Source: an uncultured Gemmatimonadales bacterium (lineage in GTDB: Bacteria; Gemmatimonadota; Gemmatimonadetes; Gemmatimonadales; GWC2-71-9). Taken from it: a DNA stretch of 64,000 bases. The stretch's first letter is position 1; each line of letters starts with the position of its first letter. The DNA lies in assembly GCA_963830455.1 (NCBI GenBank), contig CAWHMT010000004.1:434644-498643 (forward strand), written 5' to 3'. The notes beneath the pieces were generated by a model that worked only from the letters and a program-made list of their open reading frames with translations, searched no databases and was not told the origin of the DNA. Positions 30,552-61,887 of this stretch are shown here, one piece after another. The translations under genes were made by a program, and so were the position numbers.

Positions 30552-31814
30552 ATGAATTGTCACTGTGGCCGGCATGAAGCATTATCTCGTGTGCCCTCGG
30601 CAGGCGAAGCGACCCGAGTTCGGGAGCGGTTCGAACGGCTACTCGCGGCCGGCGTGGCGATCTTCTCGCGACACGAGCTCGCGCACGTGCTGCAGGAGGT
30701 CGTAGACGCCGCTCGTGACGTTGTCGGCGCTCGCTACGCCGCGCTCGGCGTCCTTGGACCGGACGGAACGAGCTTCGTGCAGTTTGTAACGTCGGGCATG
30801 GAGGAAGCCGCGCGGCAGCGGATCGGCGATCCTCCGCGCGGACGCGGTCTGCTGGGTCTGGTGATCCGCGAAGGCAAGCCCATCCGCAGCGCCGACATCA
30901 ATCGCCACCCGCAGCGCTACGGATATCCGCCGCACCATCCGCCGATGACGTCGTTTCTGGGCGTGCCGGTGAAAGGGCGTGGCGGCGCCTTCGGCAATCT
31001 GTATCTCACCGAGAAGATCGATGCGTCTGAGTTCAGCGACGAAGATGAAGCGATCGCCGTGCTGCTCGCCGCGCAAGCGGCGGTCGCCGTCGAGAATGCG
31101 CGCCTGCTGACTGAGAGCGAGCAGCTCGTGGGCCAGATTCGCGCGATGCAACGCCAACGCGACTTGTTTTTCGCGATGATGAACCACGAGCTGCGCAACG
31201 CGCTCACCGGCGTGTACGGCTGGGCGGAGCGGCTGGTGCGCCGGAAAACGCCCGACGTCTCCGACCGAGCTGCGCGTGAGGTGTACGAAGCGGCCGACCG
31301 CACGATCGTGCTCATGAACAACTTCCTCGATCTCATGCGGCTCGATGCGGGGAAGATCCGGCCAGTCATCCGGGAAGTGGACACCCAGGCCGTGGTGCAG
31401 CGGGCCATTACGACCAGCGAGCCGGCCGCGGCGGCGAAACAGCAAAGTCTACGGGTCGTTTTGGACGGCGCCCCCGCTACTCTGCACACCGACTCCGTGC
31501 GACTCGAGCAGATCCTCGTGAATCTCTTGTCCAATGCCATCCGGCACAGTCCGGGACTAGCGTCTGTCTCTGTGAAGGTCGAGGCGGCGCCGAACGGCGT
31601 GACGTTTTTCGTCATCGATCATGGGCCCGGTGTGCCGCTCGAGCTGCGCGAGCGGATCTTCGAGCCGTTCGAGCGCTTCGATCCCCACTCGGGGCATGGG
31701 ACCGGGCTTGGCCTCCCCGTATCGCGGGGGCTGGCAGAGGCACTGGGGGGCAGCCTGACGGTGGAAGAGACAGCTGGCGGTGGCGCGACTTTCATCCTTA
31801 AGATTCCTTCATGA
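30552..31814 (+). CDS. Soluble GAF-domain sensor histidine kinase
   Basis: GAF (GLLGLVIREGKPIR...FLGVPVKGRGGAFGNLYLTEK), HisKA (MNHELRNALTGV), HATPase (IDHGPGVP...GTGLGL). No TM segment. The start may be GTG 30591. Confidence 0.85.
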   Translation: MNCHCGRHEALSRVPSAGEATRVRERFERLLAAGVAIFSRHELAHVLQEVVDAARDVVGARYAALGVLGPDGTSFVQFVTSGMEEAARQRIGDPPRGRGLLGLVIREGKPIRSADINRHPQRYGYPPHHPPMTSFLGVPVKGRGGAFGNLYLTEKIDASEFSDEDEAIAVLLAAQAAVAVENARLLTESEQLVGQIRAMQRQRDLFFAMMNHELRNALTGVYGWAERLVRRKTPDVSDRAAREVYEAADRTIVLMNNFLDLMRLDAGKIRPVIREVDTQAVVQRAITTSEPAAAAKQQSLRVVLDGAPATLHTDSVRLEQILVNLLSNAIRHSPGLASVSVKVEAAPNGVTFFVIDHGPGVPLELRERIFEPFERFDPHSGHGTGLGLPVSRGLAEALGGSLTVEETAGGGATFILKIPS

Positions 31815-31817
31815 ATC
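31795..31817. promoter_or_regulatory. AT-rich motif cluster TCCTTAAGATTCCTTCATGAATC upstream of the response-regulator gene
   Basis: Contains TCCTTAAGAT (also at 30530), AAGATTCCTTCA (also at 35890), the palindrome TTCATGAA and GATTC-N6-GAATC. CCTT[ACT] units at 31796, 31806 and 31817. Confidence 0.5.
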
Positions 31818-31857
31818 CTTTAGAAATGGTTCAACGCTCCGCTGCTAGCGTGCCTGC

Positions 31858-32544
31858 ATGAAGATTCTCGTGGTGGAGGACGACCGAAAGGTCGCGGGAT
31901 TCATCGAGCAGGGTCTGCGCGAGGAAGGCTACGTTGTCGACGTCGCTCCCGATGGGGACCAGGGTACGATGCTGGCGCACGTCTACGACTATGACCTCCT
32001 GGTGCTGGACGTCATGCTCCCCAAGAAGACGGGGCTACAGCTGGCTGCGGAGATACGGCGTGAAGGGCGCGCGACTCCCATCCTCATGTTGACCGCCCGC
32101 GACACGACCGAAGACGTGGTGCGGGGGCTCGACGCCGGCGCCGACGACTATCTCACGAAGCCGTTCAAGTTCGACGAGCTGCTTGCCCGCGTGCGCGCGT
32201 TGGTGCGCCGCGGCGGCTCCGGCCGCACCGAGCTGCTGCGCTACGGGCCGGTGGAGCTGGACCGCTTGAAGCACAAGGCACGCGTGGAGGGCAAGATGCT
32301 CGATCTCACGCCGAAGGAATTCCACCTGCTGCAACACTTTCTCTTGCATCCCGAGGAAGTCGTGCGCCGCACGGAGCTCCTGGAAAAAGTGTGGGACATG
32401 CACTTCGACCCCGAGAGCAACGTGGTGGACGTGCACGTCGGGAATCTACGCCGCAAGCTGAAACAGGCGGTCGGCTTCGAATTGATCGAAACCGTTCGCG
32501 GGGTGGGGTTCCGGCTGCAGACGCCCGACCGAGCGGAGGTGTGA
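31858..32544 (+). CDS. OmpR/PhoB-family response regulator (CusR/CopR-like)
   Basis: MKILVVEDD...LLVLDVMLPKKTG...LTKPF, plus a winged helix (LTPKEFHLLQHFL...VRGVGFRL). Confidence 0.9.
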   Translation: MKILVVEDDRKVAGFIEQGLREEGYVVDVAPDGDQGTMLAHVYDYDLLVLDVMLPKKTGLQLAAEIRREGRATPILMLTARDTTEDVVRGLDAGADDYLTKPFKFDELLARVRALVRRGGSGRTELLRYGPVELDRLKHKARVEGKMLDLTPKEFHLLQHFLLHPEEVVRRTELLEKVWDMHFDPESNVVDVHVGNLRRKLKQAVGFELIETVRGVGFRLQTPDRAEV

Positions 32545-41200: not shown

Positions 41201-41469
41201 TGTGTCATGCTCGCCGCCGTGGGGGGAGGGACAGCGCGCGCGCGCCGCTCGCTCCGGGTACCCACGCGTAGCCCCACGATCGCCGTAACAGTGATCGCGA
41301 GATACATGAAGAAGCCGTAGACGCACGCCGGATATCCCAGGATGGTGCCCGGTGCCCCCGGGGACGGGCACTTGGCCGCCGAGGCAAACACCTCCCGATA
41401 GGTCAGGGTGCCGGAAAACGCCAGACCGGCCAGGGCAAGCACCAGGATCAGTTGCAGGGCTCGTTTCAT
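41197..41469 (-). CDS. Small 2-TM membrane protein with a loop Cys pair
   Basis: MKRALQLILVLALAGLAFSG...KCPSPGAPGTILGYPACVYGFFMYLAITVTAIVG. ATGA overlaps on both sides. Confidence 0.55.
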   Translation of the reverse strand: MKRALQLILVLALAGLAFSGTLTYREVFASAAKCPSPGAPGTILGYPACVYGFFMYLAITVTAIVGLRVGTRSERRARAVPPPTAASMTQ

Positions 41470-42956
41470 CGCACCGGTTCTCCTTTCATCGTGACGCGTT
41501 GCATGCCGCGAGCTGCCAGCGCGCGTGCCAGTTCGTCGTCCCATCCATAGGGATCGTGCGCGAAGGCGACGAGGCCATCGTCCGTCGCCCATGCCGTCCA
41601 GTAGACGAGGTGAACGGGAATCAGCTCAGGGAGTCGCACCCAGCGTTGCGAGCCGCTCGTCATGGCGGCGCGGATCGAATCATCGGGCCAGACCGCCAGC
41701 AGCCGTGCGGCCAACGCGGCCGCCCCCTCGATGCGGACACAGCCGTGGCTGAATGTGCGCCAGCGTTCGCTGAACAGCGGGCGCGCCGGCGTGTCGTGGA
41801 TGAACACGCTGAACGGCGTCCAGAACACGAGCTTCACGCCACCGAGTGGGTTCTCCGGTCCCGGCTCTTGGGCCAGCCGATAGGCGAACGTGCTTTCCGT
41901 AACCGCGGCCCAGTGGACAGCTCTCGGATCCAATTCGCCGCCGCTCGTGGAGGAATCGCCAAAGACGCGAAATCCTGCGCGCGTGAGATAGCCGGGATCG
42001 CGCTGGATGATGGGCAGCAGCTCCTGCACCGCGATCACTCGGGGCACTTTCCAGGCGGGACGGAACACGAGATCCGTCACCGTCGAGCTCACGATGGGAG
42101 TCGGCCAGTCGGGGCGACCAACGATCGCACGCGTGGTCAGGGTGATGGTGTCGCGCTCCACGAGCTGCAGTGAGAAGGCGGCACTGTTGACGAGGATGTA
42201 GCGCTCGCCGAGGGAGCGCGGCAGCCAGCGCCACCGCTCGAGGTTCAAGGCGATCTGCTGAGCGCGTTGCGCCGGGGAGATGTCCAGCTGCTTACGCGTT
42301 TCCGGGCCCACAATGCCGTCGGACGGGAGTCCATGCAGGGTCTGGAATCGTGCGACCGCCGCGGCGAGTCCTGCCGAGGTGTCATAGCCCTCGCTGGCCA
42401 GCCGGCGTGCCAGGGGCGTGGGCCACTTGCCTTGCTGCGCGAGCTCGCGGTAGCGCCGCAGGGACAGTTGCAGCGCGCGATACTCGGCTTGTGGTGGCGC
42501 GAGCTGTTCGAGCGCGGGACCCACGCGTTTCGCGTCGAGCGCCCGGTCCAGTAGCGCCGCGACATCCTGCTGGCGAGGCGCGCTGGTCCACTGCGAATTC
42601 ACCATCGAGGGCTCGACGCGGCCGAGCGACACGTCGCGCGCATACGAGAAAAAGGTCTGCGTCAGTAGCGTGTCGAGCTGCCACGCCTCCTCGGGCAACA
42701 GGTCCCGGTGCAACAGGGAGTCGATCTCCGGCGTGACGTAGTCTGCAGGGTCCAACCCCTGGGCGTCCGCCCGCGCCACGACGTCGAGCAACGCGGTCGC
42801 CTGCGGATCGAGACTGCCGGCGCGGATCCAGACCGGCTGCCACCAGCGCGCCTGGTAAAACCTTGCCAGGGTCGAGTCGAGCGGCTGCTGCGCCGCCGAG
42901 GCTCGAACCGCGCCCAGGATGCAGCAAGACGCGACGAAATACCTGGCGATCCTCAT
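41466..42956 (-). CDS. L,D-transpeptidase (YcbB/LdtD-like, PG-binding plus YkuD domains)
   Basis: PG-binding (VARFQTLHGLPSDGIVGPETRKQL). Catalytic IHDTPARPLFSERWRTFSHGCVRIEG. Start set at ATG 42956 (signal peptide MRIARYFVASCCILGAVRASAAQ). Confidence 0.85.
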   Translation of the reverse strand: MRIARYFVASCCILGAVRASAAQQPLDSTLARFYQARWWQPVWIRAGSLDPQATALLDVVARADAQGLDPADYVTPEIDSLLHRDLLPEEAWQLDTLLTQTFFSYARDVSLGRVEPSMVNSQWTSAPRQQDVAALLDRALDAKRVGPALEQLAPPQAEYRALQLSLRRYRELAQQGKWPTPLARRLASEGYDTSAGLAAAVARFQTLHGLPSDGIVGPETRKQLDISPAQRAQQIALNLERWRWLPRSLGERYILVNSAAFSLQLVERDTITLTTRAIVGRPDWPTPIVSSTVTDLVFRPAWKVPRVIAVQELLPIIQRDPGYLTRAGFRVFGDSSTSGGELDPRAVHWAAVTESTFAYRLAQEPGPENPLGGVKLVFWTPFSVFIHDTPARPLFSERWRTFSHGCVRIEGAAALAARLLAVWPDDSIRAAMTSGSQRWVRLPELIPVHLVYWTAWATDDGLVAFAHDPYGWDDELARALAARGMQRVTMKGEPVR

Positions 42957-42959
42957 AGC

Positions 42960-43047
42960 GTCATCCTGCATCTGCCGCGATGAAGGCATTGTGAGGAGTG
43001 ATTCACCATCGCTTCACGGCGCGTCCATCAGTTTTTGGGCGAGGTGG
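42960..43047. repeat. Copy 1 of an ~88-nt duplicated intergenic element (43-nt exact core 42979-43021)
   Basis: ~90% identical to 44372-44460. Contains ATGAAGGCATTGTGA, GTGATTCAC, TTCAC-N6-TTCAC and a terminal SD-like GAGGTGG. Confidence 0.9.
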
Positions 43048-43268
43048 GCGTCGTGATGTTCGTGCCTCACCCAAAAGCACTACTTCGCGAGCATGATTTC
43101 CCCTCACGGTCTCTTCTGTGGTTTTTCATCCAGGCTTAATCGCCCTCGGGTTTTTTTCATGAAGCACAAAACGTCGGCGCTACGGGAGATACGGAGATGC
43201 ACGCCCTTCGCGTCCGGCCGGCTCATGAAGTGGGTCATTGGACCATGAAGTCACAACGGAGGTGTGCT

Positions 43269-43943
43269 GTGAAACAGACATACTGGATGAACATGGCCAC
43301 GGTGCTGAGCATCGCGGTCCTCGCTGCCTGCCGGGGGGACTCCGGGCAGGCGGCTGAAGCAGGGAAGCTCACGCAGACCCCGGCGGCCCCAGCGGCGCCA
43401 GCGGCGCCAGCGAGCTGGACGCTCGACGTGGGGCGGCAAATCACCGCGGCGACGAGGGACACCATCAGCTCGCGCACCGCGAAGGTGGGCGATGGGTTCA
43501 CCGCTACGGTGGTGAGCGATGTGCAGGACGCCCGCGGCCGCGTGGCCATTCCGGCGGGAGCGGTGGTGTACGGGACAGTCACAGCCGTCAAGCATGCGAC
43601 GAGCCCGAGCAACGCCGGCACGTTGACCCTCGCCGTATCGGGCGTGACCGTGGGCGGCAAGAGCTATCCGATCGATGCGAGCATCGATGCCATCGCGACT
43701 GAGCGTCAGGGGCAGGGCGTGACCGGCGGCGACGTCGCCAAGGTGGGCGTCGGCGCGGCCGCAGGCGCGATCGTCGGTCAGATCATCGACAAGAACACCA
43801 AGGGAACCGTCATCGGCGCCGTCGTGGGCGCGGCGGCCGGCGCGGGATACGCCGCGGCGACCAAAGACGCCGACGTCCGCATTCCCGAAGGCACGCACAT
43901 CGTCATCACACTTCAACAGCGCCTTACCATCACCGGGAGTTGA
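43269..43943 (+). CDS. Lipoprotein with C-terminal glycine-zipper segment
   Basis: GGAGG 6 nt upstream of GTG 43269. ...VLSIAVLAAC lipobox. VGVGAAAGAIVGQII...VIGAVVGAAAGAGYAA glycine zipper. Alternative starts at 43245 and 43287. Confidence 0.65.
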   Translation: MKQTYWMNMATVLSIAVLAACRGDSGQAAEAGKLTQTPAAPAAPAAPASWTLDVGRQITAATRDTISSRTAKVGDGFTATVVSDVQDARGRVAIPAGAVVYGTVTAVKHATSPSNAGTLTLAVSGVTVGGKSYPIDASIDAIATERQGQGVTGGDVAKVGVGAAAGAIVGQIIDKNTKGTVIGAVVGAAAGAGYAAATKDADVRIPEGTHIVITLQQRLTITGS

Positions 43944-43955
43944 TTATGCGAGGGA

Positions 43956-43993
43956 AACAAAGAGGGCGGACCGTTGAGTCCGCCCTCTTTGTT
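43956..43993. terminator. Bidirectional terminator hairpin
   Basis: AACAAAGAGGGCGGAC-CGTTGA-GTCCGCCCTCTTTGTT: perfect 16-bp stem between convergent genes. Confidence 0.75.
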
Positions 43994-44005
43994 CTCCAAT
44001 GTGCG

Positions 44006-44125
44006 CTAGCTCTTCATGATCCTCTTGCCTGCTTTACGTTTCTTGATGCGGCCGCGTCCCCCAGCCGCCTTCCCGGCGCGCCGTTTGGCGGCGGTCATTC
44101 TCCCGCCTCTGCTCTTCTTGGCCAT
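44006..44125 (-). CDS. 39-aa highly basic small protein
   Basis: Not in the ORF track. AAGGAGG at 44133-44139, 7 nt upstream of the ATG. MAKKSRGGRMTAAKRRAGKAAGGRGRIKKRKAGKRIMKS (17 of 39 residues are K/R, no acidic residues). Terminator immediately downstream. Confidence 0.6.
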   Translation of the reverse strand: MAKKSRGGRMTAAKRRAGKAAGGRGRIKKRKAGKRIMKS

Positions 44126-44371
44126 GTGGAGACCTCCTTCTAGTACGCCGCTCCGCTGATCGGTGGGCGTGCCCATAGAGCGGTCAACAGGGGTGCGTCG
44201 CGCCCGTGAATATCCCGGCGGAACTGGATGGTACCGTCCCTATCCGAAGCAGTCCAGTAGCAAGTGGATTCGGCATCGGTTCCGGCAGCGGCACGGTGCG
44301 GTCCGCCGCGCTGGTCACGCAGGTTGTCGCTGCGCACCGCCGGGCCCACGCGATTCGCGTCCTTGAATGGA

Positions 44372-44460
44372 GTCATCCTGCATGTGCCGGGATGAAGGCA
44401 TTGTGAGGAGTGATTCACCATCGCTTCACGGCGTGTGCGTCAGTTTTGTGGGCAAGGAGG
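44372..44460. repeat. Copy 2 of the ~88-nt duplicated intergenic element (exact core 44391-44433)
   Basis: See copy 1. It ends in AAGGAGG, 7 nt upstream of the DLH ATG at 44468. Confidence 0.9.
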
Positions 44461-44467
44461 ACATCCC

Positions 44468-45172
44468 ATGAACGACGCCGCGCTTCCTGAGGTCTTTCAC
44501 AACCACCTGCCGGAACCCGTAATCATTCCTGCCGCCGGTATCCTGCTGCGCGGGACTCTCACGATGCCGCCTTATCCCGTGGGCATCGTGATGTTTGCGC
44601 ATGGTAGCGGCAGCTCGCGGCTCAGTTCTCGCAACCAGTTCGTCGCGAACGCGCTGGTGTCCGCGAACCTTGGCACTCTCCTTTTCGACCTCCTGAGCGA
44701 ACGGGAGGAGTCGGAGCGCGCCAACGTGTTCGACGTGGAGCTACTCGCGGGACGTCTACGGCAAGCCACCGACTGGATTGCCGCCCGGCCGGCGACGGCC
44801 GATTTGCCGATCGGCTACTTCGGTGCGAGCACGGGTGCGGCGGCGGCACTGGTTGCGGCAGCTGAGGACCGACGCGTGCGCGCCATCGTGAGCCGCGGTG
44901 GCCGCCCGGATCTGGCCGGTGACTTTCTGCCCGACGTCAGCGCCGCAACGCTGCTCATCGTCGGCGGGGCGGATCAGACCGTACTGGCATTGAACCGCGC
45001 GGCCTACGAGCGACTTGGCGGCCTCAAGCGGTTGGAGGTCGTACCGGGCGCGACCCATCTCTTCGAGGAGCCGGGCGCGCTGGACGCTGTCGCCGCTCTG
45101 GCCCGGCTGTGGTTCCTGGACCACCTCGGCCGGACGACGGTGGTCGGCAGTCGCGTGGAGGCGGTGCGATGA
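44468..45172 (+). CDS. Dienelactone-hydrolase-family alpha/beta hydrolase
   Basis: VMFAHGSGSSRLSSRNQ..., nucleophile elbow GASTGA, C-terminal GATHLFEEPG. Confidence 0.8.
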   Translation: MNDAALPEVFHNHLPEPVIIPAAGILLRGTLTMPPYPVGIVMFAHGSGSSRLSSRNQFVANALVSANLGTLLFDLLSEREESERANVFDVELLAGRLRQATDWIAARPATADLPIGYFGASTGAAAALVAAAEDRRVRAIVSRGGRPDLAGDFLPDVSAATLLIVGGADQTVLALNRAAYERLGGLKRLEVVPGATHLFEEPGALDAVAALARLWFLDHLGRTTVVGSRVEAVR

Positions 45173-45582
45173 GAATTCTCCTCCTCCTCGCCGTGGTCAT
45201 GGCGACACGGACTCTCGCCGCACAGACGGACACAGTGGCGCCGAATCCGCGCGCGCGCCTGTTCGTGGCCCGCGGCTGTGCGGATTGCCATGCGATCGCG
45301 CACCTCAAGGTAAAGGCGAAGGCCGACGTCGGACCGGATCTGTCCTCGGCGTATGCGGACGTACCGTTCCGGTACGGAGTGACGCTGGAGCGATTCTTTG
45401 TCGAGCCGGTGGGCCTCATGCGGATGGTTCTGGGCGTGCACATCCAGCTTCCCCGAACCGAGAGCGATTCGCTGGTGCGGTTGTTCCGCGATTTGTACAC
45501 CGAGCATCTGGCGCGTCAGGATAGCCTGACTCGCCGAGCGGGAGCGGTCAGTGGCAGTCCACAGCCAGAACCGCATCGCTGA
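45169..45582 (+). CDS. Secreted monohaem c-type cytochrome
   Basis: ATGA overlap. Signal peptide MRILLLLAVVMATRTLAAQ. Haem motif CADCH. Confidence 0.7.
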   Translation: MRILLLLAVVMATRTLAAQTDTVAPNPRARLFVARGCADCHAIAHLKVKAKADVGPDLSSAYADVPFRYGVTLERFFVEPVGLMRMVLGVHIQLPRTESDSLVRLFRDLYTEHLARQDSLTRRAGAVSGSPQPEPHR

Positions 45583-45607
45583 GGGACGCATCACTGGAGG
45601 AGGACGT

Positions 45608-46285
45608 ATGAACATCCAAACGCAACAACAACGATTCGCGAATCGCGCGGCTGCCGGCGAGGCACTGGCCGACGCGCTGGCGTACTACCGCGGCGCGGAC
45701 GTGCTGGTGCTCGGCTTGCCGCGCGGCGGCGTCGTCGTGGCGGGGCGCGTCGCCGAGGAGCTCAATGCCGAGCTGGACGTGATCGTGGCGCGCAAGCTTC
45801 CGTCTCCGATCTCAACTGAGCTGGCGATCGGCGCGGTCACGGCGGATGGCGAGCGCTATCTGAACGAAGGGTTGATCAGTGAGCTGGCTGTCTCGGACAT
45901 GTTTCTCGCTGCCGTGACTGGCGTGCAGCGGGCCGAGGCCAGGCAGCGCGAGCAGCAGCTCCGGGGGAATCGGCCTCCGCCGCGCCTCACCGGCCGCATC
46001 GTGATGCTCGTGGATGACGGGTTGGCGACCGGCGCAACGATGCACGCAGCCGTGCGATCGGTGCGCAAGCAGCATCCCGCCCACTTGATCGTGGCGGTGC
46101 CCGTCGGATCGCACGAGGCGTGTGAAGCGCTGGCCCACGAAGCCGATGAGCTGGTGTGTCCGTGGCGGCCGGAGCCGTTCGGGGCTGTCGGTCTGTATTA
46201 CGAGAACTTCGTTCAGACGAGCGATGCCGAGGTGCAGCAGATACTCGAGCAATCCGCCGCCATGCGGTCGGTCGAGCCATGGTGA
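45608..46285 (+). CDS. Phosphoribosyltransferase-family protein
   Basis: GGAGGAGG SD. LVLGLPRGGVVVA... and the PRPP loop IVMLVDDGLATGATM. Confidence 0.85.
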   Translation: MNIQTQQQRFANRAAAGEALADALAYYRGADVLVLGLPRGGVVVAGRVAEELNAELDVIVARKLPSPISTELAIGAVTADGERYLNEGLISELAVSDMFLAAVTGVQRAEARQREQQLRGNRPPPRLTGRIVMLVDDGLATGATMHAAVRSVRKQHPAHLIVAVPVGSHEACEALAHEADELVCPWRPEPFGAVGLYYENFVQTSDAEVQQILEQSAAMRSVEPW

Positions 46286-47610
46286 TGACGACCGCCGCAC
46301 CCGGCTATGTGCTGACGGGCTCGCCCGCCGACTTCGACCCGGTCCTCCGCCTGATCGGCGATGCGCAGTTCGCGTTGATCGGCGAGGCGTCGCACGGCAC
46401 GCACGAGTTCTATCGTATCCGCGCGGAGATCACCAAGCGGTTGATCCGCGAGCAGGGCTTCACGTCGGTCGCCGTCGAGGCCGACTGGCCTGATGCCTAC
46501 CGGGTGAACCGGTACGTGCAGGGCCGCAGCGTCGATGACGATGCCGAGGCGGCGTTGTCGGGATTCCGCCGCTTCCCCCAGTGGATGTGGCGCAACGCGG
46601 ACGTGCTCGATTTCGTCGGCTGGCTCAGGGCGCACAATGACGCATCGCGGCCCGAGCACCGGGTTGGATTCTACGGTCTCGATCTCTACGCGCTGCATTC
46701 GTCGATCGAAGCGGTGCTCGCCTATCTCCGCATCGTGGACCCTGACGCCGCGCGGCGTGCCCAGGCGCGCTACAGCTGTTTCGATCACTTCGGCACCGAC
46801 CCGCAGGCGTACGGCTACGCCACGAGCCTCGGCCTCGGCCCCTCGTGCGAGGCGGCGGTCGTCGCCGAGCTGACCGATTTGCGCCGCGCCGGCGCGGAGT
46901 ATGCTCGTCGTGACGGCCGGATCGAGCCGGATGATTTCTTCTACGCGGAGCAGAATGCCAGGCTGGTGCGCAATGCCGAGCGCTACTATCGCGCGATGTT
47001 TGGAGACCACGCGCAGTCGTGGAACCTCCGCGATCGACACATGGCGGAGACGCTCGAGGCGCTCGTGGCGTTCCACGCGACCAGCCGGCGACGCCCGGAG
47101 AAGGTCGTTGTGTGGGCGCACAACTCGCATCTCGGCGATGCTCGTGCGACGGAGATGACCATGCGGGGCGAGCTGAATCTCGGTCAGCTCGTCCGCACCC
47201 GTCACGGTCTCGATGCCGCACTCATCGGATTCCTGACTTACGGCGGTACGGTGACGGCGGCCTCCGATTGGGACGAGCCCGCAGAGCGCAAGCGCGTGCG
47301 GCCGGCGTTGCCGGGCAGCTACGAAGAGATCTTCCGCGAGTGGGGCCAGGGGGAACACGAGAACCGGTTTGTGAATCTGACCGAGTCCGATCCTCTCATT
47401 CGCCGCCTCGCCGAGCCCTATCTCGAGCGGGCGATCGGCGTGATCTACAGACCCGAGACGGAACGGCAGAGCCACTACTTCCACGCCCGGCTCACTCAGC
47501 AATTTGACGGCGTTCTGTACTATGACACGACGCGTGCCGTCGAGCCGCTGGAGCGGTCCGGACTGTGGGAGCGCGGCGAAGTGCCGGAGACCTTCCCGTC
47601 GGCGCTGTAG
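46279..47610 (+). CDS. Erythromycin-esterase-family protein
   Basis: FALIGEASHGTHEFY...VAVEADWPDAYRVNRYV...VVWAHNSHLGDAR family motifs. Confidence 0.8.
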   Translation: MVMTTAAPGYVLTGSPADFDPVLRLIGDAQFALIGEASHGTHEFYRIRAEITKRLIREQGFTSVAVEADWPDAYRVNRYVQGRSVDDDAEAALSGFRRFPQWMWRNADVLDFVGWLRAHNDASRPEHRVGFYGLDLYALHSSIEAVLAYLRIVDPDAARRAQARYSCFDHFGTDPQAYGYATSLGLGPSCEAAVVAELTDLRRAGAEYARRDGRIEPDDFFYAEQNARLVRNAERYYRAMFGDHAQSWNLRDRHMAETLEALVAFHATSRRRPEKVVVWAHNSHLGDARATEMTMRGELNLGQLVRTRHGLDAALIGFLTYGGTVTAASDWDEPAERKRVRPALPGSYEEIFREWGQGEHENRFVNLTESDPLIRRLAEPYLERAIGVIYRPETERQSHYFHARLTQQFDGVLYYDTTRAVEPLERSGLWERGEVPETFPSAL

Positions 47611-50180
47611 CTTCGTCCTGGCACACGCTAAGCGTACCCGAGGCGCTCCGGCGCGCACGTAGCGCCTCGGAGGGCCTCAGTGCCGCCGAGGCGCGCGCCC
47701 GGCTCGCGCGCGACGGGCCCAACGAGCTTCCCGCCCCGAAGCGGACATCTTTTTGGCGCATCCTGCTACATCAAATCTCCAGCGTCATCACGCTGCTACT
47801 GCTCGCAGCGGCAGCGGTGGCGCTCGTCCTGGGCGACGGGCTCGACGCCGCGGCGATCGTGGCCGTGTTGGTGATCAACGTGACGTTGGGGCTCGTCACG
47901 GAGCTGCCGGCGCGGCGTGCCATGCATGCCTTGCTGTCCCTCGAGGTGCCCCACGCGACCGTACTGCGCGACGGCCGGCCGGAGCACATCGACGCTCGGG
48001 ACCTCGTGCAAGGAGATGTGATCGTTCTCGAGGCCGGCCAAGCGGTCCCCGCCGACGCGCGGCTGGTCGAGGCTGTCGAGGCGCGTACCGTGGAAGCCAC
48101 GCTGACCGGGGAAGCGGCGCCGGTCTCGAAAGACGCCGCGCTCACCCTGCCCGGCGAGACGGCCCTCGCCGACCGGCGCAACATGCTGTATCGCGGCACG
48201 ACGGTGGTGGACGGAGCGGCGCGGGCGCTCGTTGTGGAAACGGGTCTTCACACGGAAGTCGGCCGGATCGGCACGCTCATCGGCACGCTGCCCGATGAAG
48301 CGACTCCACTCGAGCGCCGGCTCGCGGTATTGGGACGCCGGCTGGCGGTCGTCGCGCTGTCCGTCGCCGCGCTCGTAGCCGCGCTGGGGCTCCTCCAGGG
48401 GCGCGGCTGGAGCGACGTGCTCCAGCTCGGCCTGGCGCTCGGCATCGCCGCGGTCCCGGAGGGCCTGCCTGTGGTGGCGACGGTTGCGCTCGCCATCGGG
48501 ATGCGCCGCATGGCCCGGCGGCGCGCGCTCGTGCGGCGGCTCGCCATCGTCGAGACGCTCGGCTCCACGACGGTCGTGTGCACGGATAAGACCGGCACGC
48601 TCACCACGGGAGAGATGACCGCGACGACGTTCATTGCCGACGGCCGGGAGATCGCCGTGACCGGCGCCGGATACGCGCCGCACGGGGTGTTCCATGAGCT
48701 CGGCGCACCCGTCGATCCGCGGGAGCGGCCGCTGCTCAATCTCGCGCTGCGCATCGGCGTGCTCGCGAGCCGACCCGAAATCGCGCTGCCCGCGAGCGGA
48801 GGCGTGCCCCCCGGTGATCCCACCGAGATCGCGTTGGTGGTCGCCGCGGCGAAAGGCGGGGTGGATGCGCGGCGCGCGCGCGCGGAGGCCGGCACCCTGG
48901 TCGCGCAGATTCCGTTCTCGAGCGCCCGGCGCTACATGGCCGTCCACTATCGCAGTCCCGAGGGAATCCTGACCGCCTATATGAAGGGCGCCCCCGGTCG
49001 GGTGCTGGAGCGCTGCGCCTTGACCGACGACGAGCGCCGCCGGTTGGAGGGGATGAACCACTCCTTCGCGGCGCGTGGGCTCCGTTTGCTGGGGCTGGCG
49101 TGCGGTCCGGTGCGCGGCACCGACGAGGCGACGCTTCGTGAATTGACCTTCGCCGGGTTCGTGGGGCTCGCCGATCCACCGGCCCCGGGAGTCGAGGATG
49201 CGCTGCTGGCATTACACGATGCCGGCATTCACACGGTCATGCTGACGGGCGACCAGCGCTGGACGGCCGAGGCCATCGCGCGGCGTCTCGGTCTCTCCGA
49301 AGTGTTCAGCAGGGTCACCCCTGAGGAGAAGCTGCGCATCGTGGCCGACTTCCAGCGCCGGGGTGAGATCGTGGCCATGCTCGGGGACGGCGTGAATGAC
49401 GCCCCCGCGCTGAAGAAAGCGGACATCGGTGTCGCGATGGGACGCGGGGCGGATGTCGCCAAGGCCACGGCCGGACTGGTTCTGCAAGACGACCGGTTCG
49501 GGACGATCACCGCGGCGGTTGAGGAAGGCCGCGTGATCTTCGACAATCTGCGCAAGTTTGTCTTCTATCTGTTCAGCTGCAATCTGGGCGAGATCTGCGT
49601 CTTTCTGGGCGCCGGATTGGCGGGCTGGCCCGCGCCGCTCTTGCCGCTGCAGATCCTCTGGCTCAACATCGTGACCGACACCTTTCCGGCTCTCGCGCTG
49701 GCGTTCGAGCCGGCGGAGCCGGACCTGATGCGTCGTCCCCCGCGCTCCCCGCGCGCCGCGATTCTCTCGGCCGGGATGGTCCGGCTGACGGCCGGCTACG
49801 CGATACTCATCGCGGTGTGCACCCTGGCCGCGGCGTGGTGGGGGATGCACGCAGCCCCGGCATCGCCCGCCTACGCGACGACGCTGGCGTTCACGACGTT
49901 GGCCGTCGCACAGGTCTTTCACCTCGGGAATGCCCGCAGCCAGGGACCGGTCGTGCGGCCGGCGCGGATCGTCGCGAATGTTTATGCGCTCGGCGCCGTC
50001 GCGCTGGTGCTCTTGCTCCAGGTGTGCGCGACGCAGTGGTCGCCGCTCGCCGGGCTGCTCGGCACGGTGCCGCTAGGATGGCGGGAGTTTCTGATTGTCG
50101 GAGGCTTGGGTCTGATTCCGGGCGTGGTCGGTCAGGTCGTCAATGTGTTCCGCGGCTGGCGGGTGCATGTCGCGGGCTAG
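47565..50180 (+). CDS. P2-type cation-transporting P-type ATPase (Ca/Mg-type, CtpF-like)
   Basis: GLSAAEARARLARDGPNEL, TGEAAPV, CTDKTGTLT, MLTGD, GDGVNDAPALKKADIGVAMG, 10-TM layout. GTG start overlaps the upstream gene by 46 nt. Confidence 0.9.
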   Translation: MGARRSAGDLPVGAVASSWHTLSVPEALRRARSASEGLSAAEARARLARDGPNELPAPKRTSFWRILLHQISSVITLLLLAAAAVALVLGDGLDAAAIVAVLVINVTLGLVTELPARRAMHALLSLEVPHATVLRDGRPEHIDARDLVQGDVIVLEAGQAVPADARLVEAVEARTVEATLTGEAAPVSKDAALTLPGETALADRRNMLYRGTTVVDGAARALVVETGLHTEVGRIGTLIGTLPDEATPLERRLAVLGRRLAVVALSVAALVAALGLLQGRGWSDVLQLGLALGIAAVPEGLPVVATVALAIGMRRMARRRALVRRLAIVETLGSTTVVCTDKTGTLTTGEMTATTFIADGREIAVTGAGYAPHGVFHELGAPVDPRERPLLNLALRIGVLASRPEIALPASGGVPPGDPTEIALVVAAAKGGVDARRARAEAGTLVAQIPFSSARRYMAVHYRSPEGILTAYMKGAPGRVLERCALTDDERRRLEGMNHSFAARGLRLLGLACGPVRGTDEATLRELTFAGFVGLADPPAPGVEDALLALHDAGIHTVMLTGDQRWTAEAIARRLGLSEVFSRVTPEEKLRIVADFQRRGEIVAMLGDGVNDAPALKKADIGVAMGRGADVAKATAGLVLQDDRFGTITAAVEEGRVIFDNLRKFVFYLFSCNLGEICVFLGAGLAGWPAPLLPLQILWLNIVTDTFPALALAFEPAEPDLMRRPPRSPRAAILSAGMVRLTAGYAILIAVCTLAAAWWGMHAAPASPAYATTLAFTTLAVAQVFHLGNARSQGPVVRPARIVANVYALGAVALVLLLQVCATQWSPLAGLLGTVPLGWREFLIVGGLGLIPGVVGQVVNVFRGWRVHVAG

Positions 50181-50976
50181 CGGTCTGCTGGTACTTGCAT
50201 GCGCCGTGCTGATGGCTGAACCGGGCGGGGCGCAGGAAGTCAAGCGACTCTTTGCCCCGCTGATCGCCGATCCCAAGCAACCCCATTTTTTCGCGACCTG
50301 GCTTTGGACCAAGTCTCCGAGTGTTACCGGATCGGTGTCGAGCATCGGGCTCGGCGAGGATATCGTGTTCGCGACCGGCCGGAATCACCGCTGGGAGATC
50401 GGTGTCGCGGCCGGCGTGTTCTCCCAGTTCAACATGGGCACAGCCTCGATTGACCTGATCAACACGGACTTCACGATCGGGTTTCCGCTCGGCTACCGCA
50501 CCGGGGCGGTCTCGTGGCACCTCCAGCTATACCATCAAAGCTCGCACCTCGGCGACGAATTCATTCTCAACACCAATCCCACGCGAGTGAACCTCTCATT
50601 CGAGGCGGTCGAGTTGCTTGCGTCGCGCGAGTTCGGCGACGTGCGCGCCTACGGGGGCGGCGAGTACCTCGTGCGGCATGAACCGGCGGACTTGAAGCCG
50701 GGGCTCCTCCATGCCGGCGTCGAGTTTCGGCCATCGTCACCGGGGGTTGGAAAGGGCCGGCTGATCGCGGCGATCGATGCCAAGTCGTCGCAGGAACGCG
50801 AATGGCGTGTCGGCTGGAGCGGTCGGGTGGGAATCGAGTTTCGCGTCCCGATGCACGGAACGGCAGTGCGGCGTTTCAGCGTCCAACTGCAGGGCTACAC
50901 CGGACCCGCCCCATACGGCCAGTTCTATCAGGAAAACGTGCGGTCACTGGGAGTGGGCATCCACCTGGCGCTGTGA
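50167..50976 (+). CDS. Putative outer-membrane beta-barrel protein (DUF1207-like)
   Basis: Signal peptide. LFAPLIADPKQPHF motif. Alternating beta-strand pattern. C-terminal ...GVGIHLAL. Confidence 0.5.
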   Translation: MSRASGLLVLACAVLMAEPGGAQEVKRLFAPLIADPKQPHFFATWLWTKSPSVTGSVSSIGLGEDIVFATGRNHRWEIGVAAGVFSQFNMGTASIDLINTDFTIGFPLGYRTGAVSWHLQLYHQSSHLGDEFILNTNPTRVNLSFEAVELLASREFGDVRAYGGGEYLVRHEPADLKPGLLHAGVEFRPSSPGVGKGRLIAAIDAKSSQEREWRVGWSGRVGIEFRVPMHGTAVRRFSVQLQGYTGPAPYGQFYQENVRSLGVGIHLAL

Positions 50977-52725: not shown

Positions 52726-52850
52726 GGCGCCTCCTGAGCGAATCGTGACCATACCACCCGGTCCCTAAGGACCCCGTGAAGTTGTCTTCAGTGGATCTTC
52801 AGGTACCGGGCTCACAGACTGCGCTACGTTGGTCGCGAGGGGGCGAACGA

Positions 52851-55048: not shown

Positions 55049-55172
55049 AACCGCCTCCATGGAAGGGCGTGACCACAATCTCGTGATCGCGTCATGAGGG
55101 GAGCTTGAGAAAGGAAGGAAGCTTCAGCATCCCTTCAGAGTCGGTCCATCGCCCCACGACTACGCTCCGCTC

Positions 55173-55928
55173 ATGAGCACAGCGGCCCCCGCGGTCCCGG
55201 CCTCGGTCCCCCTCCTGTCTCATTCCGAGGCGGTCTTCGTGGCGCGCGGCCTGAGCAAGGTATACCGCCTGGGTGACGTGGACGTGCACGCGCTGCGGGG
55301 TGTGGACTTGGAGCTCTACCGCGGCGAGCTGGTCGTCATTCTCGGTCCCTCGGGCAGCGGTAAGTCCACCCTGCTGAACATCCTCGGAGGGCTCGACGCC
55401 CCGACGAGCGGGCAGGTACGCTTCCTGGACCACGAGCTGACGGGCGCGTCGGACCGGGAGTTGACCCGCTTTCGCCGCGAGCACGTGGGGTTCGTCTTCC
55501 AGTTCTACAACCTCATCCCCAGCCTCACCGCGCGCGAAAACGTGGCGCTCGTCACCGAGATCGCCGCGCGGCCGATGGACCCCGCCGCGGCGCTCGGACT
55601 CGTGGGGCTGAGTGAGCGCCTGGACCACTTCCCCTCGCAGCTCTCCGGAGGAGAACAGCAGCGGGTGGCCATCGCGCGCGCGATCGCGAAGCAACCCGAT
55701 GCGCTGCTGTGCGATGAGCCGACGGGCGCGCTCGACTACGAGACGGGCAAGCTCGTGCTCGACGTGCTGGAGCGGGTGAACAAACAGCTCGGTACGACGA
55801 CCGCCGTGATCACGCACAACGCCGCGATCGCCGCGATGGCCGACCGCGTGATCCGCCTGCGCAGCGGGCAGATCAGCGACATCACCCGCAATCTGCGCCG
55901 CGCACGACCCGACGAGCTGTCATGGTAG
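55173..55928 (+). CDS. ABC transporter ATP-binding protein (MacB/LolD-type)
   Basis: Walker [11 protein letters not shown]-loop, signature [14 protein letters not shown], Walker [12 protein letters not shown]. Confidence 0.9.
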
Positions 55929-60364: not shown

Positions 60365-61321
60365 ATGAGACCGCGCGCCCACACCCGTCGCGACCCGCTA
60401 CCAACTCTGCGCCCCAAGGCCGCCGAGGACAATCACTCGGCTCCGGACCGCGTTCGGGCCATCCTAAAGAGTCCGAGCTATCTCGAGGCGGACCAGGATG
60501 TGGAGTTCCTCGATCGCTCCGAGGTGCGTGGCCTGCGGCTGCAGCTCGACTACGCGAAGGCGGAGCTACTGCTCGAGGAGCACGACATCCGCTCCACGAT
60601 TGTGGTGTTAGGCAGCACGCGGATCCTGGAGCCGGCCGCGGCGCGCCGCCGCGTCGAAGCGCTGCGTGCCGCATTGACGGATGACCCCGCCAACCCCGAG
60701 CTCGTCCGGCGGCTCGCGGTGGCGGAGCGGATCCTGGCGAAGAGTCACTATTACGACATGGCGCGGGAATTCGCGCGCCTGGTGAGTGCAGGATCGCCGG
60801 AACTGCCGGAATATCGCCCCGCCATTGTCACGGGCGGCGGTCCCGGGATCATGGAGGCAGCGAACCGCGGCGCGGACGATGTGCACGCCAAGTCCATCGG
60901 GCTCAACATCACGTTGCCGCACGAGCAGTACCCGAACCCGTACATCACCGCTGACCTGTGCTTCCGCTTCCACTATTTCGCGGTGCGCAAGATGCATCTG
61001 CTGCTCAGGGCGACGGCCCTGGTCGCGTTCCCGGGCGGATATGGCACACTGGACGAGCTGTTCGAAACGCTCGACCTGGTGCAGTCAGGGAAGCTCGCGC
61101 CGCTGCCGCTCGTGCTCGTGGGAGAGGGCTATTGGCGCAAGGTGCTGGATATGCAGTTCCTGCTCGACGAAGGCGTGATCGAGCGGGAGGATCTTGAGTC
61201 GTTCTGGTTCGCCGAGACCGCGCAGGAAATCTGGGACGGGATCGTGCACTGGCATGCTCTCCACTCCAGCCTTCGAGCCGATCTCAGCATTGCTTCACCA
61301 GCGGGACGTCAGTCTGTATAG
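60365..61321 (+). CDS. LOG-family (TIGR00730/PpnN-like) nucleotide 5'-monophosphate nucleosidase
   Basis: TGGGPGIMEAANRGA and FPGGYGTLDELFE (PGGxGTxxE) motifs. Long N-terminal extension. Confidence 0.8.
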   Translation: MRPRAHTRRDPLPTLRPKAAEDNHSAPDRVRAILKSPSYLEADQDVEFLDRSEVRGLRLQLDYAKAELLLEEHDIRSTIVVLGSTRILEPAAARRRVEALRAALTDDPANPELVRRLAVAERILAKSHYYDMAREFARLVSAGSPELPEYRPAIVTGGGPGIMEAANRGADDVHAKSIGLNITLPHEQYPNPYITADLCFRFHYFAVRKMHLLLRATALVAFPGGYGTLDELFETLDLVQSGKLAPLPLVLVGEGYWRKVLDMQFLLDEGVIEREDLESFWFAETAQEIWDGIVHWHALHSSLRADLSIASPAGRQSV

Positions 61322-61338
61322 AGAAAGGGCGGGACACC

Positions 61339-61887
61339 ATGGTAACGGTACGCGACCTGATGAGCAGCGACCTCGTCACCGTCAGCCCGGAGCTCACGCT
61401 CCGTGACGCCATCGAGCTCCTGACCGCGCGCCACATCGGCGGCGCGCCCGTGGTGGCGGGCAGCCGTCTCCTGGGCGTATTCGCGGCGAGCGACGCGCTC
61501 GCCTTCGAGGCGGTTACGCCGGGCGTGCCGATGGAGCGGCCTGAGCAGCTCGAGTCGGAGCTGGAGATTCCCACCGAGTGGGAAGTGGAGGGAAGCGAGC
61601 CGCCGGCGGCGTTCTTCACGGACATGTGGATTGATACCGGGGAAGACGTTGCGGAGCGCTTTCAACATTCGCGTCCGGAGTGGGACGCGCTGCAGGAACA
61701 CACGGTCGCGGAGGTCATGACACCCTCCGTTTATGCAGTGTCGCCAGAAACCGAACTCGCCGACGCGGCGCGGCGTATGGTCGGCCTCAAGATTCACCGC
61801 GTGCTGGTGCTGGAGGCCGGTAAGCTGGCGGGTATTCTCACGACAACCGATATCGTGCGCGCGGTCGCGGAACGACGCGTGACGTAG
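61339..61887 (+). CDS. CBS-domain pair protein with a ~60-aa acidic insert between the CBS motifs
   Basis: IGGAPVVAGSRLLGVFAASD ... insert PEQLESELEIPTEWEVEGSEPP... ... IHRVLVLEAGKLAGILTTTDI. Confidence 0.8.
   Translation: MVTVRDLMSSDLVTVSPELTLRDAIELLTARHIGGAPVVAGSRLLGVFAASDALAFEAVTPGVPMERPEQLESELEIPTEWEVEGSEPPAAFFTDMWIDTGEDVAERFQHSRPEWDALQEHTVAEVMTPSVYAVSPETELADAARRMVGLKIHRVLVLEAGKLAGILTTTDIVRAVAERRVT

Follow-up and report, generated by a model that had tools for sequence, protein, structure and literature searches.

The locus described here raises the question of why a short intergenic segment is present twice, in almost identical form, and what this segment does. The window, that is, the whole stretch of 64,000 nucleotides that was analysed, comes from the genome of an uncultured Gemmatimonadales bacterium (3.47 Mb in 8 contigs, 66% GC, 100% complete). 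Positions 42955-43035 and 44367-44447 of the window form a gapless alignment with 91% identity and, with one 1-nt indel, the likeness of the two copies extends to about 43047 and 44460; the core of each copy is an exactly identical 43-mer (42979-43021 and 44391-44433), with no match in any of the 100 shuffled controls. The duplicated element of about 88 nt, with approximately 90% identity and an exact 43-nt core, that was reported in the preliminary description of this DNA is real, with the qualification that the repeated unit is longer than 88 nt, reaching about 125 nt in the sister genome (G011), where it includes relics of both flanking start codons. A search of the complete genome, which the same description had proposed for the 43-mer, found only two copies of the element, both at this locus, so that a dispersed repeat of the REP/MITE type is excluded; nothing convincing was found in the genome among near-copies of the 20-mer GATTCACCATCGCTTCACGG, and related genomes carry 0 to 3 copies of the element each. 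Judging from the sequence comparisons, the best reading of each copy is a complete, dyad-symmetric two-way promoter in which two tandem pairs of pentamers, inverted relative to each other, take the place of the -35 regions. We assign a probability of roughly 0.72 to the interpretation that these are regulator-dependent bidirectional promoters, fired by an OmpR-type response regulator, within a dormancy-like stress regulon.

Both copies are located between a minus-strand gene and a plus-strand gene, in agreement with the preliminary description. Copy 1 is adjacent, on its minus side, to ldt (41466-42956, minus strand), the predicted target of its minus-side promoter, which encodes an L,D-transpeptidase with the Pfam domains Scaffold, PG_binding_1 and YkuD. 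On the plus side, remnants of the ribosome-binding site and the start codon of DLH and a leader of ~200 nt (together 43040-43268, plus strand) precede a glycine-zipper lipoprotein gene (43269-43943, plus strand; identified with Pfam), the presumed target in this direction. Copy 2 is flanked on the minus side by a leader of ~240 nt (44126-44368, minus strand) and a gene with a strong SD for a very basic protein of 39 amino acids (44006-44125, minus strand), again the presumed target, and on the plus side by the gene for a DLH-like alpha/beta hydrolase (44468-45172, plus strand). The latter is the first gene of an operon (44468-50976, plus strand) that, according to Pfam, also encodes a CxxCH protein, a phosphoribosyltransferase (PRTase), an erythromycin-esterase family protein, a P-type cation ATPase and a DUF1207 protein. 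Between the convergent lipoprotein and basic-protein genes, hairpin alignments revealed a perfect hairpin (43956-43993), probably a bidirectional terminator. The 39-aa protein contains 17 Lys/Arg and no acidic residues, and its gene is 100% conserved at the nucleotide level in G011. The leader of this gene contains a frame-breaking indel relative to G011 and is not coding; a minus-strand ORF in this region (44140-44373) was rejected as a gene on account of the frame-breaking indel and the lack of a Pfam match. The 27-codon ORF behind copy 1 (43056-43139) to which attention had been drawn initially is not conserved either, with 4-nt and 1-nt indels relative to G011 inside the ORF, and is not a gene.

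The predicted operator of copy 1 (42981-43016) consists of TGAAG (42981-42985), TGAGG (42992-42996), ATTCA (43001-43005) and CTTCA (43012-43016), and that of copy 2 (44393-44428) consists of the same pentamers at 44393-44397, 44404-44408, 44413-44417 and 44424-44428. Each arm is a tandem repeat with a period of 11 bp, and the arms are in inverted orientation, separated by N4. Twelve nucleotides beyond the outer pentamers are -10-like hexamers, namely, CAGGAT on the minus side (minus strand; 42963-42968 in copy 1 and 44375-44380 in copy 2) and CAGTTT on the plus side (plus strand; 43029-43034 and 44441-44446, respectively). This layout, hexamer-N12-TGAAG-N6-TGAGG-N4-ATTCA-N6-CTTCA-N12-hexamer, is found without gaps upstream of all 9 DLH orthologues in the genus (9 genes in 8 of the 41 genomes) and also in the ldt promoter of another genome (G019). 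Across 12 related intergenic regions, the four pentamers and two -10-like hexamers occupy fixed positions, with column identities, calculated from 7 independent diverged sequences without indels, of 0.93 for the pentamers, 0.74 for the hexamers and 0.65 for the spacers. The N12 distance from the pentamers to the hexamer is invariant, and the minus-side hexamer, CAGGAT in the window genome, varies among the relatives (CAGAAT, GAGATT, AAATTT, CAGTAT) within the positionally conserved pattern nAnnnT; on the plus side, the pattern is CTTCA-N12-nAnnTT.

On the minus side, the configuration CTTCA-N12-hexamer-N6-ATG is retained in 8 related sequences; in the window genome, the ldt start codon (ATG, 42956-42954) lies 6 nt beyond the -10-like hexamer. 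In high-GC bacteria, TANNNT starting about 12 nt before the start codon is a mark of leaderless genes (PMC3160421), and the hexamer-N6-ATG geometry therefore implies that the ldt mRNA is probably leaderless. On the plus side of copy 2, CAGTTT, a weak -10 element, is followed by about 21 nt that include the SD AAGGAGG (44454-44460) and then by the DLH start codon. A scan with the sigma-70 consensus found no promoter within 42800-44600, and the pentamers were rejected as -35 hexamers, given that the spacers to the -10 element would be 10 or 21 nt. All four directions in the window genome retain N12 and the hexamer, and each faces a gene. In G019, where ldt is gone and a relic MRIAR* ORF adjoins the lone copy of the element, the minus-side spacers of this copy contain 1-nt insertions; this decay of the geometry at a side without a gene supports the function of the sides with exact spacing. 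The plus direction of copy 1 may be weak or vestigial considering the distance of ~235 nt to the lipoprotein start codon and the presence of a weak terminator-like hairpin in the long leader.

A broader regulon surfaced only after the motif was reduced to TGAAG-N4-CTTCA-N6-CTTCA for the genome scan. With up to 2 mismatches, there were 19 matches compared to 2 for the reversed control; with up to 3 mismatches, the number rose to 46, of which 28 are on contig C4, clustered around the window (C4:464-570 kb). A strict scan, which required [NTTCA-N6-NTTCA]-N12-[nAnnnT], yielded 28 sites genome-wide, 12 of these in a stretch of ~120 kb that accounts for 3.5% of the genome. The strict sites in this stretch precede the genes for the regulator discussed below (leaderless), USP, ldt, the lipoprotein, the basic protein, DLH, an ABC transporter (leaderless), a CBS protein, GroEL and Hsp20. 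The motif is present at about a dozen predicted promoters of a stress island of ~100 kb. Looser matches were detected near genes for an S30AE-CSD hibernation factor, PRPP synthetase, a beta-CASP RNase and hydrogenase, as well as near a gene cluster read as V-type ATPase by ORF order alone.

The candidate pentamer-binding protein is an OmpR/PhoB-family response regulator (31858-32544, plus strand; Pfam Response_reg and Trans_reg_C) whose nearest solved structures are PrrA, DrrD, MtrA, BasR and PhoP. The promoter of its gene (31798-31857, plus strand) has the form TTAAG-N4-CTTCA-N6-CTTTA-N6-GTTCA-N12-TAGCGT-N6-ATG, and the motif TGAAG-N4-CTTCA-N6-CTTTA-N6-GTTCA, with up to 3 mismatches, is present at this position in 74 of the 79 Gemmatimonadales species, followed by N12, TAnnnT and 6-7 nt to the ATG, with TAnnnT found at all 35 loci that have the modal spacing. 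The original proposal of a conserved bidirectional promoter/operator fits this conservation at the regulator promoter, along with the fixed, gapless geometry in the 12 regions and the recurrence of the motif at promoters of the island. Exact matches to the motif were found in 15 of the 111 sampled genomes of the phylum, all 15 of which encode an orthologue of the regulator (at least 71% identity), with 0 for the control. All motif-bearing genomes belong to the family of the window genome, within which the split is 15 of 43 versus 0 of 7; by our own arithmetic, the link between the motif and the regulator has a p-value of about 1e-7 when phylogeny is ignored and about 0.07 within the family, so that the co-occurrence, being confounded by phylogeny, is supportive but not decisive.

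The upstream neighbor of the regulator gene encodes a soluble kinase with GAF, HisKA and HATPase domains (30552-31814, plus strand; Pfam). At the sequence level, its GAF domain closely resembles the haem GAF-A domains of DosT and DevS, with an identity of about 55% and the HHPPM stretch kept; the PDB matches are 2vzw (DosT, E=2e-43) and 2w3d (E=1e-35). In the segment 30552-35854, the regulator gene is located between the gene for this soluble DosT-like kinase and that for a membrane HAMP kinase, and genes for haem-copper oxidase subunits II and I follow; the input of two sensors may converge on a single regulator, with a terminal oxidase expressed alongside it.

The mechanism that we infer for the element, including the transcription starts, the binding protein, the signal and activation rather than repression, is as follows. 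The phosphorylated OmpR-type regulator would bind the two tandem pentamer pairs as head-to-tail dimers, with ATTCA-N6-CTTCA serving the plus direction and the complement of TGAAG-N6-TGAGG serving the minus direction. In each direction, the two pentamers would flank the expected -35 position, where no -35 hexamer is recognisable, and the bound regulator would recruit RNA polymerase to the two -10 hexamers, each located 12 nt outward of the pentamers. Copy 1 is predicted to fire a leaderless ldt mRNA leftward and the lipoprotein mRNA rightward, and copy 2, the mRNA for the 39-aa basic protein leftward and that of the DLH-PRTase-esterase-ATPase operon rightward. The signal (low O2, NO or CO) presumably would come from the adjacent DosT/DevS-like haem-GAF kinase, and the element would thereby be a single node within a stress regulon of the dormancy-like kind.

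Boxes of the OmpR/PhoB family are known to be built from tandem repeat units of 11 nt, and the unit of the Streptomyces PHO box, GTTCACC, is a conserved core of 7 nt (PMC4415409). The sequence features expected of such a box are found at the element, with at least two direct repeat units at an 11-bp period in both copies (ATTCA-N6-CTTCA and its mirror image) and a location in the -35 region. Like the PHO boxes bound by PhoB/PhoP (CTGTCAT in E. coli, GTTCACC in Streptomyces coelicolor), the element consists of 11-nt direct repeats in which a short conserved core adjoins bases of lower conservation, and its core, (A/C)TTCAC, resembles the Streptomyces unit. Furthermore, PHO boxes and the sites of PmrA/BasR, PrrA and MtrA similarly replace the -35 element at a fixed distance from the -10 element, and systems of the PHO-box type share with the one described here a winged-helix response regulator and a regulator gene that is, or here would be, autoregulated. 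Unlike in PHO boxes, two tandem pairs are fused head to head (N4) and would serve two divergent promoters, one of them probably leaderless; the predicted targets are stress and dormancy genes, and the partner kinase contains a putative haem GAF domain. Compact divergent promoters that share a site for a class II activator also have an intergenic region of ~110 nt with a central array and two outward -10 elements, but differ from the element, which shows exact two-fold symmetry, contains four half-sites, is probably leaderless on one side and SD-led on the other, and is duplicated as a whole unit.

The kinase sensor, about 55% identical to the DosT haem GAF-A domain, links the system to DosS/DosT-DosR (DevSR) of mycobacteria and to OsdR of Streptomyces (PMC5069765, PMC3390679). 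As in the DosRST regulon, the genes involved include USP, CBS, Hsp20, the S30AE hibernation factor, PRTase and esterase/hydrolase domains, a P-type ATPase and hydrogenase. On the mycobacterial side, the genes for this comparison are Rv0571c, Rv2030c and ctpF. In contrast to DosR, the regulator is of the OmpR type, with a Trans_reg_C domain, rather than of the NarL/LuxR type, the kinase contains HisKA rather than HisKA_3, and the operator consists of phased pentamers rather than of the 20-bp palindrome. Because both the regulator family and the operator differ, the system is an analogue, not a member, of DosRST.

An alternative in which the array is the site of a repressor, or of a regulator other than the adjacent OmpR-type protein, that blocks two divergent constitutive promoters until stress relieves the block appears unlikely, even if the symmetry of the element gives it some substance. 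Dyad symmetry of this kind is typical of dimeric or tetrameric repressors, and the array, with its inverted inner pair TGAGG-N4-ATTCA, spans both -35 regions. Repressors could act just as well from a site between -25 and -60, and the inner pair with its N4 spacer could suit a different dimeric palindrome-binding protein. However, there are no -35-like hexamers that constitutive promoters could use, and the promoters of the regulator, USP and Hsp20 genes contain tandem direct pentamers with an 11-bp period upstream of the -10 element, which is an activator geometry for winged-helix regulators (PMC4415409). Moreover, the motif is best conserved at the gene of the regulator itself. The core of a CRP/FNR site has the spacing TGA-N6-TCA (TGTGA-N6-TCACA, TTGAT-N4-ATCAA); a site of this type was considered and rejected given that the inner pair of the element corresponds to TGA-N8-TCA and is flanked by phased pentamers.

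The origin of the two copies can be traced through the gene orders in the relatives. In G017, G009, G033 and G001, ldt and DLH are direct divergent neighbors around a single element, whereas in the window genome (G000) and in G011, copy 1 separates ldt from the lipoprotein gene and copy 2 separates the basic-protein gene from DLH. The reconstructed ancestral order is ldt and DLH diverging from one element, with the segment containing the lipoprotein and basic-protein genes now located between two intergenic units of ~125 nt; the second copy, by this reconstruction, arose with the insertion of the two genes into the original intergenic region. In G011, AAGGAGG...ATGAGCGACGCCGCGCT, with the first 17 nt of DLH, is still present at the end of copy 1, and the left edge of copy 2 reads ATGAAGGACGC, compared to ATGAGGATCGC of ldt. 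In the window genome, these relics have decayed to GAGGTGG...GTGATG on the DLH side and to ATT in place of the ldt start codon, which is ATG in G011; this relic start codon is 6 nt beyond the minus-side hexamer of copy 2. Of the SD-like boxes that had been noted in both copies, the one in copy 2 indeed serves DLH, whereas that in copy 1 is what decay has left of the ribosome-binding site of DLH. The DLH, CxxCH protein and PRTase genes are syntenic in most relatives. The lipoprotein family is represented in all 41 genomes of the genus, with a near-identical (99%) copy only in G011 and the other matches at 44-65%, and the glycine-zipper lipoprotein of the window appears to be a lineage-specific paralogue. 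No donor locus of the insert was identified: the lipoprotein paralogues elsewhere are 57-65% identical, and the basic protein has no paralogue elsewhere in the genome. In G011 (locus L020, 6864-9082, minus strand of the locus, G011:C1), genes for an ice-binding-like protein (PF11999) and an OmpA-family beta-barrel protein are located between copy 1 and the lipoprotein gene, so that the plus side of copy 1 heads a three-gene envelope operon.

From 43242 to about 44440, the window genome and G011 are 97-100% identical, save for an indel-rich stretch at about 43900-43960, compared to 78-92% in the flanks. Within this tract of ~1.2 kb are the lipoprotein gene and the terminator, the basic-protein gene with its leader, and copy 2 as far as its left and core parts; the right end of the tract coincides with the end of the exact 43-mer, inside copy 2, and its left end is where G011 has an extra 2.26 kb. 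The pattern of identity marks this block as a recent recombination tract between lineages. Since the copies of the first element in both genomes keep the shared lineage marker CGTCC after the core, full homogenisation of copies 1 and 2 by gene conversion is not seen. The attribution of the identity of the copies to selection or gene conversion in the preliminary description is half right: selection explains the pentamers (0.93 versus 0.65 for the spacers). The identity of the spacers, which vary freely in other species, seems better explained by a young duplication and the recent recombination tract than by selection.

These findings are relevant also for the quite improbable alternative that the identity of the copies is a mere trace of recent duplication and recombination, with one or both directions of copy 1, or the minus side of copy 2, being relics. 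The decaying relics of the ldt and DLH start codons inside the repeat, the mutated pentamer ATTCT in copy 1 of G011, the broken minus-side spacing in G019 where ldt is gone, and the 97-100% identical tract that, amid flanks of ~88% identity, ends inside copy 2 are all compatible with such decay. Nevertheless, the exact geometry persists in all four directions of the window genome, each of them facing a gene, and the pentamers are conserved far beyond the lineage in which the duplication is found; besides, this alternative concerns the origin of the repeat and does not contradict the promoter function. The duplication itself is ordinary genome evolution. In G019 (locus L022, G019:C111, 52938-56845 in the numbering of the contig), a second DLH paralogue has its own diverged copy of the element, the diverged copy at ldt keeps only the pentamers and hexamers, and a CBS gene 11.5 kb away has a third site; the genus has seen repeated copying of the promoter unit.

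A structured RNA leader, an attenuator with a small ORF and a mobile repeat of the REP/MITE type are all highly improbable as readings of the element. It does contain the mini-ORF ATG AAG GCA TTG TGA, short palindromes and an end that resembles an SD, but in G017, G009, G283 and G033 there is no start codon for the mini-ORF, whose ATG and TGA belong to two of the conserved pentamers, and terminal inverted repeats and target duplications are absent. The original description is accurate as to the mini-ORF, the palindrome GTGA-T-TCAC, TTCAC-N6-TTCAC and the SD-like boxes, but neither the mini-ORF nor the palindrome is conserved in the relatives, and the extended palindrome AGTGA-T-TCACC, which resembles a Streptomyces BldD box, was dismissed as such on the same grounds. 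The suggested 5'-leader cassette found no support either: at a permissive threshold, there was no Rfam match on the element, with chance matches on the terminator hairpin only, single-sequence folding of both strands of both copies gave z-scores of -0.3 to -1.5, that is, no fold signal, and the minus side lies wholly upstream of a start codon that is probably leaderless. Conservation instead tracks the DNA dyad symmetry.

Returning to the bidirectional promoters, a tentative and more far-reaching possibility is that they belong to a DosRST-like program of dormancy under hypoxia or NO, in which a DosT-type kinase signals to an OmpR-type regulator and the pentamer promoters are portable cassettes that recruit genes. 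If so, the near-invariant 36-bp operator would provide the patch of homology by which genes enter the regulon through recombination and pass between species, the recruited genes being those for the lipoprotein and the 39-aa basic protein and, in G011, also the ice-binding-like and OmpA-like proteins, and transcription in both directions would be triggered simultaneously by a single pair of regulator dimers arranged head to head. The duplication exemplifies a route of entry into such a regulon, in which copies of the entire intergenic promoter unit come to flank an inserted segment. The element offers a clean promoter/operator definition in a phylum whose promoters and regulons are almost entirely unmapped, and in our searches of the literature neither this regulon nor this motif was found described for Gemmatimonadota. 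The element further suggests how an abundant, scarcely cultured group of soil bacteria may respond to low oxygen or NO by going into a resting state, with a sensor borrowed from the mycobacterial type and an output regulator from a different family.

Several additional sites of the island merit mention. A perfect TGAAG-N4-CTTCA-N6-CTTCA at 52777-52801, readable on both strands, lies between a unit on the minus strand that consists of a 52-aa ORF and the PRPP synthetase gene and the beta-CASP RNase gene on the plus strand, and would be a second bidirectional site of the regulon. The ABC transporter ATPase gene is preceded by CTTCA-N6-GTCCA-N12-TACGCT-N6-ATG (55113-55175), a leaderless arrangement, and the CBS-domain gene by TCTCA-N6-CTTCA-N12-CAGTCT (61282-61341). 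About 71 kb beyond the end of the window, at C4:569370-569600, TTCAC-N6-TTCAC-N6-TTCAC is found upstream of the Hsp20 gene, and the same stretch contains, immediately past a Spy/CpxP-like gene, the separate site ATTCA-N6-CTTCA-N12-TAGGTT. No ORF is obvious downstream of the latter site, which might be the promoter of a small RNA or of a gene for a small protein.
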